Source of the DNA: a virus
Taxonomy: Duplodnaviria > Heunggongvirae > Uroviricota > Caudoviricetes
Strand: one strand, 5' to 3'
DNA length: 35,535 bases
IMG/VR virus record: IMGVR_UViG_2872152978_000002
Position numbers and translations under genes: made by a program. Positions 5,686-34,599 of the stretch are shown here, one piece after another; the first letter of the stretch is position 1, and each line of letters begins with the position of its first letter. The notes under the pieces are model-generated. The model worked only from the letters and a program-made list of their open reading frames with translations. It had not been told where the DNA came from and did not search any database.

Positions 5686-6876
5686 TTAATTGCTGTTAAC
5701 CGAGGTGACCAGATTTGCCAGGTATTTATCGGTGATACGCTGGCGCAGGGTCAGGTTTTCAAGAGGAGGCACCGGGGTATAGTCGTAGTCGATATACAGT
5801 TTTCCGGCCTTGAGGGTTTCCGCATCGTTGGATTCTTCGCTAAACCAGCAGGTCGCATCCACGATATAGCCGTTTGTTTTCAGCTCACGGAATTTGGCAT
5901 TGATGCCGTCAACGATGTCACGAATCAGCGTTGCGGTGATGGGCTTGTCCACCGCCCACATGTGCGCCTCAGCCATCGTGTCGGCCAGTACCTGTGCGGT
6001 GCGGGTGTAGTTTTCAAAGAGGAACAGCGGGTCATCAGAGCAGGTACGGTTACCCCAGAAGCGGAAACCGTCACGGCGAATCAGTGTTGTGACGCCTGAC
6101 TCGTTAAGCAGGTCAGCATCGGTGCCGGACTCCTGCAAATCCCAGAATACAGATGCGCTGATGCCGGTAACACCGTTCACCCCGACGTTGGACAGCGTTT
6201 TATGCCAGCCCTGCTCCTGGTCGATTTTGGCACGCAGACCCAGCGCACGGGCGGTAGCATACGCGGTGGCGGTGGTACTGGTGACCGTATCCCATGCGAG
6301 GAAATCCGGCCAGATGACCATCAGCTCACGCTGGCTGAAATTCTGGCGGTAAGCTTTCACCTCGGAAATGGTTTTACAGCCCCATGCGCTGATATACCCG
6401 AAAGCGCGCAACTTCTGACAGACTGATGCCAGTGCAACAGCCACCTCTTTGGTATCCAGTCCCGGTACGCCGAGAATACGCGGTTTAACACCGGTTACCG
6501 ACTCCGCCGCCAGCAGGGCTTTCAGTCCGGTGTACTGACCGTTTTCGTCGGTGGTGCCGATGATATTGGAAACGGTCTGCGCGAGTTTCGTTTCTTCGTC
6601 GTCGCCGGTGCCGTCTTCCACGCGCACAACAACGGTGACCGGTTTTGACTGGTCAGCGATGGCCTGCAACGATGCCGCCAGCGTGCCTTTTTTACCGGCC
6701 TTTGCAATTGCGCTCTGCACATTGGTAATCAGCACCGGTTTATTGAGGGGGAAGGTTTCCGCATCCGCATCGCTGGCCGTGCAGACCATGCCGACAATGG
6801 CGGTGGATACGGTTGAAATGACGCGGGTGCCGTCGTTAATCTCCAGCACCTGCACGCCGTGATGATAGTCACTCAT
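5686..6876 (-). CDS. FI: Contractile tail sheath protein FI, 396 aa
   Basis: 396-aa ORF, P2 gpFI length and position, first gene of the FI-FII-E-T-U-D block. Confidence 0.9.
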   Translation of the reverse strand: MSDYHHGVQVLEINDGTRVISTVSTAIVGMVCTASDADAETFPLNKPVLITNVQSAIAKAGKKGTLAASLQAIADQSKPVTVVVRVEDGTGDDEETKLAQTVSNIIGTTDENGQYTGLKALLAAESVTGVKPRILGVPGLDTKEVAVALASVCQKLRAFGYISAWGCKTISEVKAYRQNFSQRELMVIWPDFLAWDTVTSTTATAYATARALGLRAKIDQEQGWHKTLSNVGVNGVTGISASVFWDLQESGTDADLLNESGVTTLIRRDGFRFWGNRTCSDDPLFLFENYTRTAQVLADTMAEAHMWAVDKPITATLIRDIVDGINAKFRELKTNGYIVDATCWFSEESNDAETLKAGKLYIDYDYTPVPPLENLTLRQRITDKYLANLVTSVNSN

Positions 6877-7063: not shown

Positions 7064-7096
7064 TGACAGTCTGCTTTGAGCGAAAAGCAGACTGTC
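7064..7096. repeat. Perfect 14-bp-stem inverted repeat upstream of the HNH gene
   Basis: TGACAGTCTGCTTT-GAGCG-AAAGCAGACTGTCA; no clear T-run on either side, so it could be an operator or RNA structure rather than a terminator. A degenerate copy lies at 8077..8115. Confidence 0.7.
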
Positions 7097-7212: not shown

Positions 7213-8022
7213 ATGACGAAAATTAGTGAACGATGGAAGCACAATGGCATTACTGAAGGTTATTGCAATATTTGTGGGAAATATGGCTTGCTCACAAAAG
7301 ATCATGTTCCTCCAAAGTGCGCCATAACCTTAGGCCCTGTTTTGCAGAAAACAGTTAGCGAATTTTTTGGTATTCAGGAACCAGTTAAACCATTAAATGC
7401 TAAAAATGGCTCTTATTTCAGAACCATTTGCAGCCACTGTAACAATAAGGTATTAGGTGGGCTCGATGTTGCAATTGAAAATGTAACAAAGTCCTTTAAA
7501 GAACAGTTAAGTCGATATATGAATGGTATGAATGTATATCCATTCATTAGAATACCTTTTGATAGCATATCTTTCACTAAGGCTATGATTGGGCACGTGC
7601 TATCAGCAACTTCAGTTGAAGATTGTAAAAAAGAACCCGTAGATAGCCCCTTCTATACACCTTTAAAGGATTATGTTTTGGGTAAAAATTCAAGTTTTGA
7701 GGAAACTCATGATATTTACTACTGGTTTTACCCACACAGAATGCACATATCCGCTCAAAGTGTAGCATTTATGAACGAAGGACATGTGGCATTTATTTGT
7801 GCTTTACATTTTTTTCCTATCGGTTTTATTATCACAATGAAAAATGAAGGAACATACCCTGCCCACTCTACAAAATTAGAACTTGAAGATAAATTCCTTA
7901 CATTTAATATGACCTCTATAAATTATGAGTATACGACATTTCCATTTGTAAATCTTAAGGGAAACCAAATGTATGCGATAAGCAACGGTCATACTTGTGT
8001 GAGTTATCCAATAATTAAGTGA
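7213..8022 (+). CDS. HNH-motif nuclease-like protein with an unknown C-terminal domain, 269 aa
   Basis: N-terminus carries C-x2-C (CNIC), DHVPPK, a conserved Asn and C-x2-C-N-x-K (CSHCNNK), the spacing typical of zinc-bound HNH endonucleases. GAGGGA Shine-Dalgarno before the ATG. About 35% GC, unlike the P2 backbone. C-terminal ~190 aa has no motif I recognise. Confidence 0.75.
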   Translation: MTKISERWKHNGITEGYCNICGKYGLLTKDHVPPKCAITLGPVLQKTVSEFFGIQEPVKPLNAKNGSYFRTICSHCNNKVLGGLDVAIENVTKSFKEQLSRYMNGMNVYPFIRIPFDSISFTKAMIGHVLSATSVEDCKKEPVDSPFYTPLKDYVLGKNSSFEETHDIYYWFYPHRMHISAQSVAFMNEGHVAFICALHFFPIGFIITMKNEGTYPAHSTKLELEDKFLTFNMTSINYEYTTFPFVNLKGNQMYAISNGHTCVSYPIIK

Positions 8023-8162
8023 CGGCTAAATCATACAATCTACGCATGTTCACTTTCTACATATACCATCTATAATGTCCGCTGTTGGCACAAAGCAGAC
8101 GCCCACTCTCACGCGAATGCTTTGCCCTTGACTTGCCAACAACCGTATCGCTTGCTCCGCAA

Positions 8163-9440
8163 CTATGGTTTTTTATTAGAATCTTCGCCACTAAATAAAT
8201 TATAATAAATTGATTTTATTAGATATCTGTCAGAATCTATATGGTCAGCACGAGTAGCATGCTCTAATGTTTCAAATGCTAGGGTTTGTGCGGCTTCAGC
8301 AAAAATTCCAGGCCAACCCTTACTCAGCATCGACAGTCCTTTAAGGACCCTTATCTGAATTTCCCTCATACTGGCACCATCGCGCGCAACAGGTGAGAAA
8401 AAGTCTTCAAGTAGATCGTTATTCTGAAGTGGTGCAACATGTACAGAAGGATATTTCACTTCTATTTCATCAGATTTATTCTGCGCGTAAGCGGAAAGTA
8501 TACGTACACCTCTGCCAATGACATCAATGGCGGTTCCAGGATCGTTCACTGCGGGGGAAAGGGCTCGGCAGGCTATTTCGGCCATGACGCTAAGACAAAA
8601 TCGGGGGTCCTGAGCAAATGAACGTACATCCGAGACAATAATCGTCTCAAGTAAATCGGTGCTGATTGATGACTCCTGGCCCTGACTCAGGTACAAAACT
8701 GGCGTGGACGGATGTATGAAACTGCCCGGCTGCGCCACGAGGTATACATGACGGGGATCATTGGTCAGCAGCTTGCTGAGTTTCACCATATCAACATATT
8801 CAACATAGCCAATCTTTTTCGGATAAACTGCAACCGTTCCTTTCGGCTGTTCATTGTTCTCAAGCCATGGATATCCGCCGAGACAGGGATTTCTTGCTCT
8901 CGCAATAAATGTTTCGATGGCCGCCTGTTCTACTTTTGCCGTTGTCTCACCAACCCTCCCCAGAGAGGTCAAATGCTGTATCCAGCGAAGCAATGTGATG
9001 AGGATTAAGGCAATGACAACCAGTGTTACAATGAATAAAATGACTCTCCCCCTTTCTCCATAAGCTCCCATATTGAGGGCAATAATCCCTACCAGACTGA
9101 AGAGAAAAGAACCGATGAAGGTGGCCAGTACATTTTGTGTGGTGACGTCTTCAACAACTAAACGAGTAGCTCTGGGAGTCACATTAGTAGTGGCTGAACC
9201 GTAGGCTGTGACCATGATGCTCAGCGAAAATGTGGTCACTGCCAGCATACTCGATGCCAGTATGTTCAGAATGTTATCGACTGCTTCCGCACCAACCTTC
9301 ACGGAAACCGACTCAGGTATCATTGATTTAAAAAGAATTGATAAAAGGGCCGTTATTATTGCGACAATTGCGAATAACGTTGCCCTGAACCATAGTTTTT
9401 TAAATGTCTGCTTCAGCATCCATTTCCAGCGTGAAATCAT
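8163..9440 (-). CDS. Membrane protein with four N-terminal TM helices and a ~250-aa soluble domain (DUF2254-like, from memory)
   Basis: Four hydrophobic segments in the first ~160 aa. Start placed at the Met preceded by GAGGGA (the track ORF starts 15 nt upstream, inside the terminator T-run). Family assignment is from recollection only. Confidence 0.55.
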   Translation of the reverse strand: MISRWKWMLKQTFKKLWFRATLFAIVAIITALLSILFKSMIPESVSVKVGAEAVDNILNILASSMLAVTTFSLSIMVTAYGSATTNVTPRATRLVVEDVTTQNVLATFIGSFLFSLVGIIALNMGAYGERGRVILFIVTLVVIALILITLLRWIQHLTSLGRVGETTAKVEQAAIETFIARARNPCLGGYPWLENNEQPKGTVAVYPKKIGYVEYVDMVKLSKLLTNDPRHVYLVAQPGSFIHPSTPVLYLSQGQESSISTDLLETIIVSDVRSFAQDPRFCLSVMAEIACRALSPAVNDPGTAIDVIGRGVRILSAYAQNKSDEIEVKYPSVHVAPLQNNDLLEDFFSPVARDGASMREIQIRVLKGLSMLSKGWPGIFAEAAQTLAFETLEHATRADHIDSDRYLIKSIYYNLFSGEDSNKKP

Positions 9441-9461
9441 TCTGCATTCCCTCATATTGCA

Positions 9462-9492
9462 GCCGGGATAAATAAATGCCGCCTCTGTGGCG
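9462..9492 (-). terminator. Intrinsic terminator between the BCCT transporter gene and the downstream membrane protein gene
   Basis: ATGCCGCC-TCTGT-GGCGGCAT hairpin followed on the minus strand by TTTATTTATC, 12 nt after the transporter stop codon. Confidence 0.55.
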
Positions 9493-9503
9493 GCATGTTG
9501 CTG

Positions 9504-11507
9504 TTAACGAACCAGATGCAGGAAGTGCAGGTGTTTTTCGTACTGGTCCAGTATGTCATTAATCAGCTGTTCCTGATTCCAGCCCATTACATCATAATTT
9601 TGGCCGCCCTCTTTGAGATAGACTTCAGCGCGATAATATCGATGTTGTTCACTCTGCTGCTCATCATTATCCAGCGCAGCGAGCGCGAAGGTCGGTGAGT
9701 TATACCCGCGAAGCCTCACTTCATATATATAATTCAGCTCGTTGCCCAAATCGACTTCAAGGCGAATACGATCCTCGGCGGCGTCACTGATGTGGCTTAT
9801 CGTTCCCTGCTTGTTAAGTTCCTCCTGAACCAGCGTCATGGCGGGTTGGATAATGTCGTCCATAAAACGTTTCACAAGAGAGCGCTTCGGCAAATACGCG
9901 ATATTGCGTAACCTTCTCTGCCAGGGAATTGGGTTACGTGCAGCCGTAGGAGCAATAGTCGCCATGCTAAGGCTTTCACGCTTGGTCAAATCCCGACGCA
10001 GGGCTTTTAACAGTCCGTATATGGATATTAATAAGATAACTGAGAAGGGCAATGCACTCGCTATCGTTACGGTTTGCAACGCACTCAGCCCCCCTGCGAT
10101 CAGCAGGGCAATAGCAACAACGCCCATGAGCAATGCCCAGAAAATTCGCTGCCAGACGGGCGTGTTTGCCACCCCACCTGATGCCAGAGTATCCACAACC
10201 ATTGCCCCCGAATCAGCAGACGTTACAAAGAAGACGATGACCATCGCCATTGCAATGAATGACAGCACGGAAGAGAACGGGAAATGCTCCAGGAAATTAA
10301 ACAGGGCAAGCGCAACATCCTGCTGAACGGTATTGGCGAGGTCAGTGGCGCCCTGGTTCATGATGAGATAGATGGCGCTGTTTCCAAACACCGTCATCCA
10401 CATGAGCGTAAAGCCGGCGGGAACAAACAACACGCCAGTCACGAACTCACGAATTGTCCTGCCGCGGGAAACGCGTGCAATGAACATACCTACAAACGGC
10501 GACCATGAAAGCCACCATCCCCAGTATAATAATGTCCAGCCCCCCAGCCAGTTGCTCGACTTGGGTTCATACGCGTAAAGGTTGAACGTTTTACTCACCA
10601 GTTCCGACAGATAACCACCCGTATTTTCCACAAATGACTTCAGCAGAAGCACAGTGGGACCCAGGCACAAGACCAGCGCCAGGAGCAACACCGCCAGGCC
10701 CAGATTAAGCTCAGACAGGATGCGTATTCCCTTGTCCAGGCCGGACACCACCGAAATCGTCGCTAACCCCGTGATGACCACGATCAAAATGACCTGTACC
10801 GTTTCATTGATGGGCACGCCGAAAAGATGGTTCAAACCGGCATTCACCTGCAATACACCGTAACCCAGCGATGTTGCAACGCCAAAGACAGTGCCTATCA
10901 CGGCGAAGATATCAACCGCGTGGCCTATAGGCCCGTAAATGCGATCGCCGATAATGGGATAGAGCGCAGAACGCAGCGTTAAAGGCAGACCGTGACGGTA
11001 ACTGAAAAAGGCCAGAATCAGCGCCACGATGGCATAAATTGCCCATGCGTGCAGACCCCAGTGGAAGAACGTCAGGCGCATGGCTTCCTTCGCTGCCGCA
11101 ACGGTCTCTGGAGTGCCGACAGGTGGCGAAAGATAATGCATCACAGGTTCGGCAACGCCAAAGAACATCAGGCCGATCCCCATCCCTGCCGAAAAAAGCA
11201 TCGCGAACCAGGAGTGGTAGCTGAAATCAGGCTGCGCATGGTCTGGGCCCAGCTTTATATCACCGTAACGTGAGAGTCCAAGGAACGTGACGCTCAGTAA
11301 AATCAGGGCCACAGCAAGTATGTAGAACCAGCTGGCATTCGTGAAGATTTGTTGCTGAAGTAGTTTAAAATTTTTGTCGGCGACATCCGGGAATACGGCG
11401 GCAAAGGCGACAAGAAGGAAAATTAGCAAAGCAGATGTAAAGAATACCGCTTTGTTAACCTGGCTTGTAGACTTCTTTGGGGTTGTATCATTTTCACTCA
11501 TAATCAT
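9504..11507 (-). CDS. BCCT-family transporter, BetT-like (choline/betaine type), 667 aa
   Basis: BCCT signature GWTLLYWGWWLSWSPFVGMFIARVSRGRTIREF; overall collinear with E. coli BetT as I recall it, including the C-terminal ...DILDQYEKHLHFLHL tail. Confidence 0.85.
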   Translation of the reverse strand: MIMSENDTTPKKSTSQVNKAVFFTSALLIFLLVAFAAVFPDVADKNFKLLQQQIFTNASWFYILAVALILLSVTFLGLSRYGDIKLGPDHAQPDFSYHSWFAMLFSAGMGIGLMFFGVAEPVMHYLSPPVGTPETVAAAKEAMRLTFFHWGLHAWAIYAIVALILAFFSYRHGLPLTLRSALYPIIGDRIYGPIGHAVDIFAVIGTVFGVATSLGYGVLQVNAGLNHLFGVPINETVQVILIVVITGLATISVVSGLDKGIRILSELNLGLAVLLLALVLCLGPTVLLLKSFVENTGGYLSELVSKTFNLYAYEPKSSNWLGGWTLLYWGWWLSWSPFVGMFIARVSRGRTIREFVTGVLFVPAGFTLMWMTVFGNSAIYLIMNQGATDLANTVQQDVALALFNFLEHFPFSSVLSFIAMAMVIVFFVTSADSGAMVVDTLASGGVANTPVWQRIFWALLMGVVAIALLIAGGLSALQTVTIASALPFSVILLISIYGLLKALRRDLTKRESLSMATIAPTAARNPIPWQRRLRNIAYLPKRSLVKRFMDDIIQPAMTLVQEELNKQGTISHISDAAEDRIRLEVDLGNELNYIYEVRLRGYNSPTFALAALDNDEQQSEQHRYYRAEVYLKEGGQNYDVMGWNQEQLINDILDQYEKHLHFLHLVR

Positions 11508-11822
11508 TTATTCCATTAATTAAATCCGCACTGGATAGAAGGTACTACCTCTCACAGAGTAGCAAAGTTCAACTGGCTATGCGGGATTAATCGGAATGCA
11601 TGGTGGAATGAGTGCCGATACAAATCATCCTATATTCTAAGGAGTTTTAAGTTACTCAGCCTGCCAATTACTGGGGCATTTAATTTGTATGATCTGTATC
11701 AAAGCTGGGATATAAGTTAAGTGAAGTATATTAGGCACGAATTACCAGCGTCTGCTCTTGGCACAGAGCGGACTGTCAGATTAGACTTTACTCTGTGCTA
11801 TAGGTATGTCAGCTCATACAAC

Positions 11823-12350
11823 TTATTGCGGCATTTCCGGCCATTCAGGATTTGCAGGATCCACACGACTGACCAGAACGCTGTAGCGTTCCCATGCTTC
11901 CAGTCGGCTGCGCTCCTCATCTGTTGCCATATTCAGCCTGACAGCGCGCTCCAGCGGCAAAATCACGGATTCAGCTTCGGAAAGTAAAGTTGCCTTTTGT
12001 GATTCTGCCAGTTGCTGCTGTTCGTCTGCCGTATAAATCCGCTTAATCACGGCACCATCCTTAAACATCCATTTACCTGAGTCATCAGCACGTCGGTTGG
12101 CGGTAATATCAGGAACCTCGACAACGCTAAAACCTTCAGGGTTAAGCGTTGAAGCATCTCTGGTGATGCCGACAATTATATTATTCTCGTCGTAAACAAT
12201 CTTTATCGTGTCTTCCTGAAAATTACTTACTTCCTCATACCAGTTTTTTCCGTCTTCAGACCATAACCAGATAACATCAAAATTTTTTGTCAGTTGATAT
12301 TGGGCAACAGTTTTGGGATTACCCGCAGTAATATTTTTTAAATGCTGCAT
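11823..12350 (-). CDS. G: Tail fibre assembly protein G, 175 aa
   Basis: 175-aa ORF directly downstream of H; P2 gpG length and position. Confidence 0.88.
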
Positions 12351-16238: not shown

Positions 16239-16863
16239 AGAGGACTCCCGGTTGTGCCGCCGCTGTCGCCGGGGTGTTTATGGGTATGCAGTACCTTCCC
16301 GTTTGATGAAAGTTCACCGCCGGTGTGTTCAATGTTGCCGCGCATCGTCCCGCCCTTCTGCACTTCCAGCGTGCCGGTAATCAGCTTGTTGGTGCAGACC
16401 ACCTCCGGTGTGTCCAGGGTGACGCGGGTTGATGCTTTCACCATGACCACCGGCACCGTGGCAGTAACAGAATCAGAAGCCGTCACGCTGGCCGTTTTAA
16501 TTCCGCTTACCGTGAGTGCACTGGTTTCAGGTTCATACTCAATCACCGCCCCGTCAGGGAAACGGATATGCAGGGCATCCGCCGACGCCGACGGCGCGGG
16601 TTATCGCCGGAATAAATCCCCGGCAGAACGAACGCCGTGTCGAGTTCACCGCCCACGGCCAGAATCAGCACCTGTTCCCCCACGGAAGGTGCCCACCATG
16701 TGCGCGAACGACCGGCGCGATGGGTCAGCCACTGAAGCCAGTCGGTGCACATGCCGCCGGTCTGCACACGGCAGCGACCGGCATTAAGGTCGGTTTCGAC
16801 GATAATGCCAGTGCGAATCATATTGCGTATAAAGCGAAGAATTTCATTGTATTGTGCATTCAT
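16235..16863 (-). pseudogene. V: Baseplate spike gene V, split by a frameshift (or sequencing error)
   Basis: N-terminal part (MNAQYNEILRFIRNMIRTGIIVETDLNAGRCRVQTGG...SGDN) and C-terminal part (...ADALHIRFPDGAVIEYEPETSALTVSG...GSPL) lie in different frames. They join if 2 nt are removed or 1 added near 16596..16600 in a GCGCCG-rich run; the joined length is about that of P2 gpV (211 aa). Confidence 0.7.
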
Positions 16864-16949
16864 TCGATAATAATGATTCTGTACAATCTCGAAGTAAATC
16901 ACACCACGATTTCTGGTGCACAGAACAACAAGGGACAACAAAATCCATT

Positions 16950-18023
16950 ATGAGTACTTACTTTTTCTCGTCAGAAACAATGAAAGAATTGTTCAAAGAT
17001 TATCTGGTCTTTTTGAACACGCTGACTCCCGGCACAAACTTTGAATCAAGCAGAAACAAAATAATTGCTCAAGCAATAAACTTCATTTCCGAAAACCCTG
17101 AAGATTGGGACAAAAAATCCCAGTACAACATTGCTATGATTGGCGACACCTTTAAAAGTTTCTTAAGAGAAAAGGGAGAAGATAACAACAGCATCAACCT
17201 TATATTCACTTGCTTTTTTAGATTTATCATTGAACCAAGCATTCTCTCTCCGGAAATAGAGTCTCACTTTTCACCACTAAGAACCATCAAGGATTTTGCT
17301 CTGTATAACTATAATGAATTCGATGAGCGGAGCAGAGCACAGATAGACTTTTCTCTTAGAGAACTGCCATTAGCAATGGTTAAAGAAGTTTTAAGCTCCA
17401 GCAATGTTGACACATATAAAAAATACATTGATAGTTTAAACGAAGGGCGTCAATTTTTCGAAAAGTGCGACTCCTTCTTAAAGGAGCAACATGCCAAAAT
17501 AGAGTCAATCAAAGAGTCATTAAAAGGGTATGAGGTCGCATTTAATTTTGTTGGATTGTTTGAAGGCTTTAATTCACTTGGCAAAAAGAAAGAAAGTGAA
17601 ATCATGCTATCAAGAATAATTCTTATCATCTTGGCTATAATCATTCCCTCCCCGCTGATATACTATGGAATGCATAAATTACCAGCTCTCGAAACGACAA
17701 ATGCTGCCACATATTTTATGTCAGCACTACCTTTTGCATCAGTTACATTGATTTTCATGTATTACTTTAGAGTTGTACTGCTAAATCATATATCGTTACG
17801 AACTCAGATTATGCAAATAGAACTCAGAAAGAGCCTTTGTCAGTTCATTCAGAGTTATAGCGACTATTCCTCAGAGATAAGGAAAAACAATCCGGAAGCG
17901 CTTTCAAAATTCGAAGACGTAGTATTTTCAAACATCATGCTATCCGATGATAAGATACCATCTACATTTGATGGCATTGAGCAAATAGCATCGTTAATCA
18001 ATTCATTAAAAAATGGAAAGTAA
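16950..18023 (+). CDS. Hypothetical 2-TM membrane protein (~357 aa) at the P2 orf30 moron position
   Basis: AT-rich ORF divergent from V. Mostly helical N-terminal ~240 aa, then two hydrophobic helices (IILIILAIIIPSPLIYYG and YFMSALPFASVTLIFMYYFRVVLL) and a ~90-aa tail. Followed by an intrinsic terminator. Start codon uncertain (weak Shine-Dalgarno). Confidence 0.6.
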   Translation: MSTYFFSSETMKELFKDYLVFLNTLTPGTNFESSRNKIIAQAINFISENPEDWDKKSQYNIAMIGDTFKSFLREKGEDNNSINLIFTCFFRFIIEPSILSPEIESHFSPLRTIKDFALYNYNEFDERSRAQIDFSLRELPLAMVKEVLSSSNVDTYKKYIDSLNEGRQFFEKCDSFLKEQHAKIESIKESLKGYEVAFNFVGLFEGFNSLGKKKESEIMLSRIILIILAIIIPSPLIYYGMHKLPALETTNAATYFMSALPFASVTLIFMYYFRVVLLNHISLRTQIMQIELRKSLCQFIQSYSDYSSEIRKNNPEALSKFEDVVFSNIMLSDDKIPSTFDGIEQIASLINSLKNGK

Positions 18024-27501: not shown

Positions 27502-27931
27502 CGCCCGCTTTATGGGTCGGTTTTAATGCAGGTGCACGAATACACCGGAGGCGCGCCGGCACTGGTGGCGCTCAGACGCAACAGGGGAGGAAAACGCATG
27601 CAATTGAATGCATTTCTAGGCACACCTAAAAATGAAAAAATGTTATGACAATTAATCATTTTAAACACACTGATTAAGGGTAGAATTCTCCTAGTAAAAT
27701 CATAGAAAAACCGCTATCAAACCAGGCTTTTGCCTTGCTTCATTTTTTTAGATGAGTCTAAAAATTTGAAATTATCATTAGATGAAAATATTCTTTCTGC
27801 GGTATGCCGAATGACTGAAGTATTGAAGACCGCAGCCTGCTCCTCATTACAACTGAATACACCCTCATGACCATCAAACTCGCCCGCCAAAAGAAGGTTT
27901 TTTGATACTGGGAACAAAACTAAAGTGTCTT

Positions 27932-28645
27932 TTACACCAAACCCGGGGAATAAGGGCCTCGTGCTAATTCAGGATTAGTCCACATTAAGCAAACTGGGTT
28001 ATCTGAAGTTATAAATGACCCTTGCCCATCAGATATGGTCATAAGTGACCAGTTGCGTTGATGCAACAACTTGGTGATAACAGGTACACATTTCATTTCC
28101 ATATCTATCATGAACTCTCTGATTACATTGATTTCGAAATTATCCCCATCCACAAAATTTTTAATTTTTTCGTAAGCGAGATCATATGGCAAAGACTCAC
28201 CCATTTCTTTCTCATAAGCTAATTTGCAATCGTCCCAACGCTCAGCCGAACTAACTGAGGATTTCATGATAAACTTTGCTATTTGTTTCAATGGAGATGA
28301 TAAATGTTCTCGCTGAGCAGGCGTACGTATTGCCAATAAGGAAATAAACTCCAGAATAACATCTTTGGTTTCGCCTGAAAACTCGCCCCCCTCCTCAAGT
28401 TTTCTTAAATGAGTAGCGACACTGCCTTCAAACTCTGCAAGAGAACTCTCGAGATAGTTTGGGTCAACTCCATCCAATTCTAATCGGTTGAAATCTCTAA
28501 CCCCCCCGACATTGCGAGTATTACTCTCAAAGGTTTTGCGCTCCTTTAAATCTATTACAGTTAATTTTGATTTTTTCCCCCCATTACTTGTAAACCCTTT
28601 CAAATAACATTGGGATAAAAAATGATGATGCCTTGCAACACTCAT
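27932..28645 (-). CDS. DUF4238-like protein at the P2 old/tin moron position, probably truncated by a frameshift
   Basis: Starts MSVARHHHFLSQCYLKGF and contains SDNPV, which I recall as DUF4238 hallmarks. GGAG Shine-Dalgarno 6 nt before the chosen ATG. AT-rich. The reading frame of the downstream 66-aa ORF (27717..27917) is open from 27967, so one indel in the CCCCGGG run would give a ~305-aa product. Confidence 0.65.
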   Translation of the reverse strand: MSVARHHHFLSQCYLKGFTSNGGKKSKLTVIDLKERKTFESNTRNVGGVRDFNRLELDGVDPNYLESSLAEFEGSVATHLRKLEEGGEFSGETKDVILEFISLLAIRTPAQREHLSSPLKQIAKFIMKSSVSSAERWDDCKLAYEKEMGESLPYDLAYEKIKNFVDGDNFEINVIREFMIDMEMKCVPVITKLLHQRNWSLMTISDGQGSFITSDNPVCLMWTNPELARGPYSPGLV

Positions 28646-28748
28646 ACTCAGCTCCGTTATGGCTATAATCGCATAAATAATAAGCACTTATATTGCAATC
28701 ATCTAGTTAAATACACAATATTTATGACTCCGAAATTTCATTAAATCA

Positions 28749-34571: not shown

Positions 34572-34599
34572 AATCTCCCTTACACGGGCTTATTTTTTT
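34572..34599. repeat. Prophage att core, int-proximal copy (28 bp, one extra T)
   Basis: AATCTCCCTTACACGGGCTTATTTTTTT; identical to 145..171 except for a T-run of 7 rather than 6. Confidence 0.85.

Follow-up and report, generated by a model that had tools for sequence, protein, structure and literature searches.

A stretch of 35,535 nucleotides from a tailed phage (Caudoviricetes; IMG/VR record IMGVR_UViG_2872152978_000002), referred to here in its full length as the window, carries betU, a gene for a transporter of the BCCT family. Most probably, this gene provides the lysogen with an extra osmoregulated route for the uptake of betaine and represents an osmoprotective moron that was brought into the prophage by site-specific cassette exchange. 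The gene and the hairpin that follows it are located as follows:

9504-11507, minus strand: betU, BCCT-family osmoregulated betaine transporter, based on Pfam and NCBIfam profiles, alignments with BetT and 98% identity to the betU of transposon Tn6062
9476-9496, minus strand: terminator-like hairpin that separates the betU stop from the start of DUF2254, with an 8-pair stem (6 G-C) followed by the T-rich TTATTTAT

The reading frame of betU is open for 667 codons from its first ATG; RefSeq places the start at the ATG at 11501, which gives 665 amino acids. Its product covers the whole Pfam profile BCCT PF02028 (E 3.3e-199, 662.8 bits with a cut-off of 27; residues 21-506, profile positions 1-485 of 485) and exceeds the cut-offs of TIGR00842 (543.6 bits, cut-off 407.55) and of the NCBIfam ‘BetT’ subfamily (751.8 bits, cut-off 695), but falls below that of the NCBIfam ‘betaine_BCCT’ equivalog (595.6, cut-off 650). 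Transmembrane helix 8 (TM8) carries the tryptophan-rich signature GWTLLYWGWWLSWSPFVGMFIARVSRGRTIREF. In BCCT transporters, this tryptophan motif forms a binding box for quaternary ammonium groups. Within the TM8 motif WTLLYWGWWLSWSPFVG, W331, W332 and W335 align with W327, W328 and W331 of Pseudomonas syringae BetT and with the Trp box of BetP. The C-terminal tail of about 150 amino acids (residues ~515-667) can be aligned over its entire length with the corresponding domains of the BetT proteins of E. coli and P. syringae. An earlier note made from the letters of this DNA had described a BCCT transporter with the tryptophan-rich signature, a BetT-like regulatory tail and its own terminator at 9462-9492. 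The description of the protein is borne out in full, and the terminator corresponds roughly to the hairpin at 9476-9496 (RNA fold −20.4 kcal/mol, z = −2.1). The note had also considered inactivating changes in the transport residues, but the transport motifs are conserved throughout. Clustered at 90% identity, the protein falls into a group of 11,294 sequences that also includes the Tn6062 betU product, and exact copies of it are found in 10,077 indexed blocks of the assembly collection.

The substrate assignment builds on the near identity with the betU of Tn6062, which is flanked by the insertion sequence IS1 and resides on an IncHI1 plasmid of S. Typhi. The two proteins agree in 649 of 665 residues (98%), and the same amino acid identity (98%) is found with the allele in a genomic island of sequence type 131 (ST131). 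On the nucleotide level, the betU-DUF2254 pair of the window differs by about 5.5% from both the Tn6062 and the ST131 island alleles. The original description of BetU, from E. coli HU734, is said to be that of Ly et al. in J Bacteriol in 2004. Holt et al. (2011; PMC3139670) gave the name betU to the Tn6062 gene (SPAP0106) of the PST6 IncHI1 plasmids of S. Typhi and reported that the cloned pair of betU and the DUF2254 coding sequence enables growth of S. Typhi in LB medium with 0.8 M NaCl. One of their cloning primers matches the window at about 8170-8192. The same study describes BetU as an uptake system for glycine betaine and proline betaine that was first found in pyelonephritis E. coli, and a review by Wood (2015) lists choline as the specific substrate of BetT and betaine as that of BetU. 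Going by this literature on the 98%-identical pair for both substrate and osmotolerance, BetU would take up glycine betaine and proline betaine in E. coli.

The residues around the substrate site are consistent with this assignment. TM3 of betU reads FSAGMGIGLMFF (AGMGIG), as in the Na+/betaine symporter BetP. The last glycine of this stretch (G112 in the 667-residue numbering of the window betU, used throughout) is replaced by an aspartate (D108) in E. coli BetT and by a threonine in P. syringae BetT, and the residue equivalent to D210 in TM5 of P. syringae BetT is S213. Neither of the acids implicated in the proton coupling of BetT (D108 in E. coli, D210 in P. syringae) is thus present at the aligned positions of betU, and the tryptophan prism for choline or betaine (W331/W332/W335) is kept. 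By analogy with its homologues, BetU is expected to form a trimer like BetP and BetT, in which betaine would be bound in the tryptophan prism of TM8 and the glycine stretch of TM3, and a frataxin-like C-terminal domain would gate the activity in response to osmolality. BetP from Corynebacterium glutamicum has in common with betU the TM3 stretch AGMGIG, the Trp box, the TM10 motif FFxTSADS and, according to the reports on BetU, the substrate betaine. It is, however, a weaker match (331 bits), and its tail is short and helical, whereas that of the window betU is a globular domain of the BetT type.

Alternatively, though this is unlikely, betU could encode a second BetT, i. e. a choline importer with proton coupling that supplies the host enzymes BetA and BetB and confers choline-dependent osmoprotection. 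BetT of E. coli and of P. syringae (PDB 8ybq) indeed share the BCCT transmembrane domain, the C-terminal regulatory domain of about 150 amino acids and the TM8 tryptophan prism with the window protein, with full-length identities of 42% and 45%, respectively, and 39% to P. syringae within the C-terminal domain. Together with the profile scores above and below the respective cut-offs and with the RefSeq and NCBIfam name of the protein (WP_005032116 and relatives), ‘choline BCCT transporter BetT’, this similarity speaks for choline. However, BetU is reported to be specific for betaine, the equivalents of D108 and D210 are glycine and serine, TM3 is of the BetP type, and betU is never found beside betIBA, the genes to which betT is linked in E. 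coli K-12: tblastn searches with BetA, BetB and BetI of strain K-12 gave no match in the window or in any of the loci retrieved. Moreover, the transmembrane domain of betU scores higher against a GMGIG-bearing trimethylamine transporter (515 bits) than against the transmembrane domain of E. coli BetT (470 bits), and the family score therefore does not fix the substrate. Since a 98%-identical gene has been published as the betaine-specific BetU, and in view of the TM3 and coupling residues, the RefSeq name is probably a mis-assignment of the substrate that affects more than 10,000 database entries.

The second part of the proposal, acquisition of betU as a phage moron, concerns its genomic position. 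The window comprises a complete P2-like (Peduovirus) prophage of about 34.4 kb with short host DNA at both ends. The features that define the prophage and its cargo locus are:

145-171, no strand: P2-type att core (attR side), 27 bp, AATCTCCCTTACACGGGCTTATTTTTT, an exact direct repeat at both window ends
5686-6876, minus strand: tail sheath gene FI, which borders the Z/fun cargo locus on the left (Pfam Phage_sheath_1, Phage_sheath_1C and Gp18_domIII_N; RefSeq ‘phage tail sheath protein’)
7213-8022, plus strand: cassette 1, gene for a 269-residue protein with CxxC...DHxPPK...CxxC motifs (DHVPPK here)
8163-9455, minus strand: gene for a DUF2254 membrane protein, the constant downstream partner of betU (Pfam PF10011, E 1.6e-92; RefSeq start at 9440, 425 amino acids)
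11823-12350, minus strand: tail-fiber assembly gene G, which borders the Z/fun locus on the right (Pfam Caudo_TAP, E 9.4e-35)

The second copy of the 27-bp att core lies at 34572-34598, and the pair delimits the prophage, whose genome has about 102.5% of the length of P2 and whose genes follow the order ogr-D-U-T-E-FII-FI ... G-H-I-J-W-V ... S-R-lysis-X-L-M-N-O / P-Q ... A ... C-int. The same prophage is present in E. coli O152:H23 Res13-Lact-ER01-35 with 99.6% identity across 31.8 kb, where it adjoins yegQ. Between FI and G, an interval of 4.9 kb holds three genes, i. e. the 269-residue gene on the plus strand and DUF2254 and betU on the minus strand. Hence, betU was rightly placed by the earlier note within the tail-gene region of a temperate phage, and its exact position is the classical Z/fun cargo locus of P2, which in P2 itself holds the anti-T5 gene fun/Z. 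A chimeric or mis-assembled contig, also considered in that note, is excluded, because the block of FI, cargo and G recurs with 100% identity in the complete chromosomes of the strains S10, Res13-Lact-ER01-35 and d1-58 (the latter as two assemblies), as well as in one further NCBI assembly (L009) and one IMG/VR contig (L052). The Z/fun loci of P2, P2-EC58 and pro147 share this position between G and FI, but known Z/fun cargo consists of a single small gene for lysogenic conversion or exclusion, whereas the window holds two cassettes (4.7 kb) that include a metabolic transporter.

The boundaries of these cassettes are marked by a 24-bp imperfect palindrome of the pattern GTCYGCTNT-N6-ANAGCRGAC, in which 9-bp arms surround a 6-bp spacer (9-6-9). 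A search with this pattern gave three sites in the window with 0.02 expected, exactly at the three boundaries of the cargo:

7069-7092, no strand: site A, GTCTGCTTT-GAGCGA-AAAGCAGAC, junction of P2 backbone and cassette 1
8077-8100, no strand: site B, GTCCGCTGT-TGGCAC-AAAGCAGAC, junction of cassette 1 and the betU cassette
11750-11773, no strand: site C, GTCTGCTCT-TGGCAC-AGAGCGGAC, junction of the betU cassette and P2 backbone on the G side

P2, P2-EC58 and pro147 have equivalents of sites A and C with matching flanks (‘aatctgaca’ and ‘tgtcagatt’); on all of these P2 backbones, the site next to FI is of the GAGCGA type and the one next to G is of the TGGCAC type. Elsewhere, the left arm of site A goes with the P2 flank and its right arm with the cassette; the left arm of site B varies with the neighboring cassette, and its spacer and right arm, together with gcccactctcac, stay with DUF2254. 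Accordingly, betU and DUF2254 constitute a cassette of 3.65 kb that adjoins the single-gene cassette 1, and both together amount to 4.7 kb. Either this 4.7-kb block or betU and DUF2254 alone are found with 99.9-100% identity on IncFII plasmids, in a Rac prophage, beside a Mu-like prophage and a P4-like satellite, and in fim-adjacent and other genomic islands. In the loci retrieved, nearly identical betU-DUF2254 cassettes border on 9 kinds of upstream and 10 kinds of downstream neighbor. At every locus, the identity to the window ends inside the palindrome, with one arm belonging to the outer flank and the spacer plus the other arm to the cassette. The sites fall into two spacer classes with the same grammar across loci, and every junction compared keeps the identity of its spacer. 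The cassettes are bounded as follows:

269-residue gene: GAGCGA ... TGGCAC
betU-DUF2254: TGGCAC ... TGGCAC
476-residue gene: GAGCGA ... TGGCAC
200-residue tyrosine recombinase gene: TGGCAC ... GAGCGA

Arms in inverted orientation around a short, asymmetric spacer, and exchange confined to like spacers, are features that the sites share with core sites of tyrosine recombinases. From the comparison of junctions, the constant break inside the palindrome implies that the cassettes probably move by site-specific recombination, and they would have reached Z/fun by recombination between sites of the same spacer class. The palindromes do not appear to be repetitive extragenic palindromic (REP) or enterobacterial repetitive intergenic consensus (ERIC) elements, given the consensus sequences of these. 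Sites of the XerCD/dif or attC type were considered as well and rejected by comparison with the dif and attC consensus sequences and by weak scores of the candidate recombinase described below against Xer and IntI models.

Inverted repeats at this position have been noticed before. The Z/fun moron locus of P2, its flanking inverted repeats and exchange mediated by them were reportedly described by Nilsson, Karlsson and Haggard-Ljungquist in Mol Biol Evol in 2004, in a paper whose title is said to link P2-like phages and pathogenic enterobacteria. Such a link fits the aspV island of strain CFT073, where one site abuts the P2 G-side flank tgtcagattaga. At Z/fun, a ‘left/right inverted repeat’ is marked in the GenBank entries from Nilsson et al. 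(2004), and a passage of a review credits these inverted repeats with site-specific exchange.

It is very unlikely that the cargo instead entered through homologous recombination between conserved phage flanks or through illegitimate events at hairpins, in which case the palindromes would be mere terminators or REP-like elements. Such an origin might be suspected, as the sites are intergenic, hairpin-forming palindromes and homologous exchange has been proposed in the literature for the other P2 hot spot. Yet, the cassette is found next to at least 9 and 10 flanks that are unrelated and share no homology beyond the site, the break always falls between one arm and the spacer plus the other arm, and pairing occurs only between sites with the same 6-bp spacer. 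Furthermore, the sites also enclose a tyrosine recombinase gene, and a two-cassette array is common to Rac-like and P2-like prophages with different flanks.

The likely catalyst of cassette exchange is this 200-residue tyrosine recombinase (WP_001752951 family, a cluster of 3385 members). It contains a Phage_integrase domain (E 1e-17) with the residue set R-K-HxxR-H-Y as read from its sequence, and its gene is flanked by the 24-bp sites. Homologues occur in such arrays at a P2 Z/fun locus, at a lambdoid hot spot between hokD and the DUF977 gene, and in defense islands. The Z/fun case is that of E. coli PCN033 (locus L085, 6445-8875), in which a P2-like prophage carries a small tyrosine recombinase homologue along with a DUF5677 gene; a phage can therefore carry the presumed cassette recombinase. 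From its occurrence and residues, the 200-residue protein may well be the cognate recombinase of the sites, and it could act on the cassettes in trans while being a cassette of the same system itself.

Tentatively, the betU cassette could be regarded as one member of a larger cassette exchange system of the Enterobacteriaceae that is integron-like but mechanistically distinct, with 9-6-9 sites, a cassette-borne recombinase, docking hot spots and mixed cargo; we consider this possible rather than probable. The recombinase of such a system would be the 200-residue protein, which comprises the catalytic domain only, and docking hot spots could be found at Z/fun of P2-like phages, in Rac/Qin-like lambdoid prophages (from hokD to the DUF977 gene), on IncF plasmids and in genomic islands such as aspV of CFT073. 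In this way, osmoprotection, defense-like and other genes might be shuffled among phages, plasmids and chromosomes. With integrons, the arrays have in common promoter-poor units of one or two genes, one composite site per unit, a head-to-tail arrangement, a tyrosine recombinase and recurring cassettes. In contrast to attC hairpins with their GTTRRRY core, however, the sites are 24-bp palindromes of two spacer classes without that core, and instead of a fixed integrase gene in a platform the 200-residue recombinase is a cassette, with no attI/Pc platform evident here. The arrays do not qualify as integrons, as neither an IntI-type integrase nor attC sites are present, and the 200-residue recombinase scores far below the cut-off of the integron-integrase model (12.5 bits, cut-off 435).

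Several points weigh against the view that betU is a betaine transporter gained by cassette exchange and active in the lysogen. A simple scan for sigma-70 promoters gave no good match in the 242-bp region upstream of betU, and the nearest sigma-70-like match, at 11812-11785, is within the P2 flank. The link to BetU is made through the name that Holt et al. chose for the Tn6062 gene and the 98% identity to it, and their osmotolerance experiment addressed both genes jointly. The ion coupling is deduced from motif comparison, and the name given by RefSeq points to choline. With regard to the mobility of the cassette, recombination at the sites is deduced from comparative junctions, and the window contains no copy of a recombinase of the 200-residue type, so that further movement needs the enzyme in trans.

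Taken together, the evidence still favors extra betaine uptake. Expressed from the prophage, betU would give the lysogen a further betaine uptake route and higher tolerance of high osmolality, which would amount to lysogenic conversion. For the proposal of the earlier note that lysogenic conversion takes place by osmoprotection or choline uptake, osmoprotection is thus the best-supported role, while choline uptake is disfavored, since BetU is reported to be betaine-specific and the coupling acids are absent.

The constant partner of betU deserves attention in this context. The DUF2254 protein is identical to the product of the partner gene in Tn6062 in 418 of 425 residues (98%), and the gene travels with betU in the cassettes, in Tn6062 and on Klebsiella plasmids. 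DUF2254 lies directly downstream of betU in both Tn6062 and the window; the two settings differ in that the window pair has intact 24-bp sites within a P2-like prophage and Tn6062 is flanked by IS1. The ST131 island allele differs from the window in being truncated by IS600. Deep conservation of the pairing, considered as a sign of functional coupling, is partial. The genes remain together in Kluyvera, Leclercia, Pseudocitrobacter and LSJC7, where the identity of DUF2254 goes down to 67%. The pairing is absent from Mangrovibacter and Pantoea with DUF2254 alone, and from Klebsiella aerogenes, Xenorhabdus, Serratia liquefaciens and Pantoea with the betU orthologue alone. In an AlphaFold2 model (mean confidence score, pLDDT, 80), DUF2254 has an N-terminal helical membrane part and a confidently predicted C-terminal domain; a comparison of the model with PDB folds gave no informative structural match. 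DUF2254 proteins are widespread membrane proteins of proteobacteria and have been reported as a knotted or slipknotted family. For the 269-residue protein of cassette 1, no Pfam, NCBIfam or PADLOC match above threshold was obtained, with weak hints of HNH_5 and zinc-finger domains; databases name it ‘chaperonin’ or ‘metal-binding domain protein’. Its cassette alone fills the Z/fun locus of phage pro147 and is also present in CFT073. PADLOC likewise gave no matches for betU, DUF2254, the 200-residue recombinase and the 476-residue protein.

Finally, it is highly improbable that the transporter, alone or with DUF2254, was co-opted for conflict between phages (superinfection exclusion or abortive infection, like fun/Z): although betU occupies the slot of the anti-T5 gene, has defense-like neighbors in other arrays (an anti-phage dGTPase, a type I restriction-modification system, DarTG, and a Mrr-like nuclease with an ATPase) and is accompanied by a protein without assigned function or fold relative in the PDB, neither gene is matched by PADLOC, all BCCT transport motifs are intact, the 80-89% orthologues in Klebsiella aerogenes, Xenorhabdus, Serratia and Pantoea are stand-alone chromosomal genes, the cloned pair has an osmotolerance phenotype, and the pair is abundant on Klebsiella plasmids and occurs in an IS1 transposon, outside any hot spot. 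Given the same absence of defense matches, the conserved transport motifs and the ordinary chromosomal orthologues, the suggestion of a transporter scaffold repurposed for something else finds no support.

The distribution of the pair underlines its mobility. Among 5426 complete E. coli genomes, 1966 (36%) contain betU-DUF2254; about 409 records show at least 99% identity and about 1550 show ~94%, the latter group being typified by the copy in the ST131 island, which is truncated by an insertion sequence and has a decayed site. A further 1531 plasmids, mostly from Klebsiella, carry the pair. None of 50,697 deposited phage genomes does, which agrees with the earlier judgment that such a transporter is unusual phage cargo; it is, however, not specific to phages, as the two-gene cassette occurs in many non-phage contexts and the Z/fun slot is a known one. 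Of 33 IMG/VR contigs with betU-DUF2254, 18 have a Rac-type upstream flank and two or three are P2-like; 19 loci end in a Rac-type downstream flank. One of the P2-like contigs represents a different P2 lineage (H 85%, G 77%) that contains betU-DUF2254 together with the commonest companion cassette of the Rac-type arrays, so that an entire array has passed from one type of phage to another. The 80-89% orthologues in Klebsiella aerogenes, Xenorhabdus, Serratia liquefaciens and Pantoea are devoid of sites. The two genes are adjacent without sites in Leclercia, Pseudocitrobacter and LSJC7 and with degenerate flanking sites in Kluyvera, which makes these bacteria plausible sources of the cassette. 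Strain AST215 harbors a single Rac prophage with both trkG and the betU cassette (locus L002, 4805-6262 and 15842-19180). Ly et al. are said to have surveyed the distributions of trkG and betU together in 2004, both being laterally acquired osmoregulatory genes.

Two further loci of the prophage carry genes beyond the P2 backbone. At the other P2 hot spot (tin/old position, between the portal gene Q and the replication gene A), a DUF4238 gene at 27717-28687 on the minus strand matches the PADLOC model ‘DUF4238-Pers’ (E 8.5e-168). Its reading frame in the window is apparently split into open reading frames at 27717-27917 and 27932-28687, and the annotation in Res13 gives 309 amino acids. The near-identical prophage of S10 has an OLD-like ATP-dependent nuclease at this position instead. 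Between the baseplate gene V and the tail gene S (P2 orf30 position), a low-GC (~36%) reading frame lies on the opposite strand (16854-18023, plus strand); RefSeq lists it as a 347-residue hypothetical protein, and no Pfam, NCBIfam or PADLOC match was found for it.

In summary, the presence of betU in this prophage is largely ordinary, given that this osmoprotectant transporter, its effect, its wide mobility and the Z/fun slot for phage cargo were already known. With respect to betU in prophages, or to a recombinase or cassette system at Z/fun, the literature searched held nothing specific beyond the inverted-repeat report of 2004. The recombinase and the site grammar may thus be new beyond that report. 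The locus provides a clean case of a temperate phage with a gene for host fitness, in the form of osmotolerance, whose cassette also moves among other phages, resistance plasmids and pathogenicity islands. The more interesting by-product is the cassette-exchange grammar with its candidate recombinase: comparison of the junctions affords a precise set of rules, comprising the site sequence, two spacer classes and a putative enzyme, for the exchange of cargo at phage hot spots, a mechanism that had been left open for the hot spots of P2 and P4.

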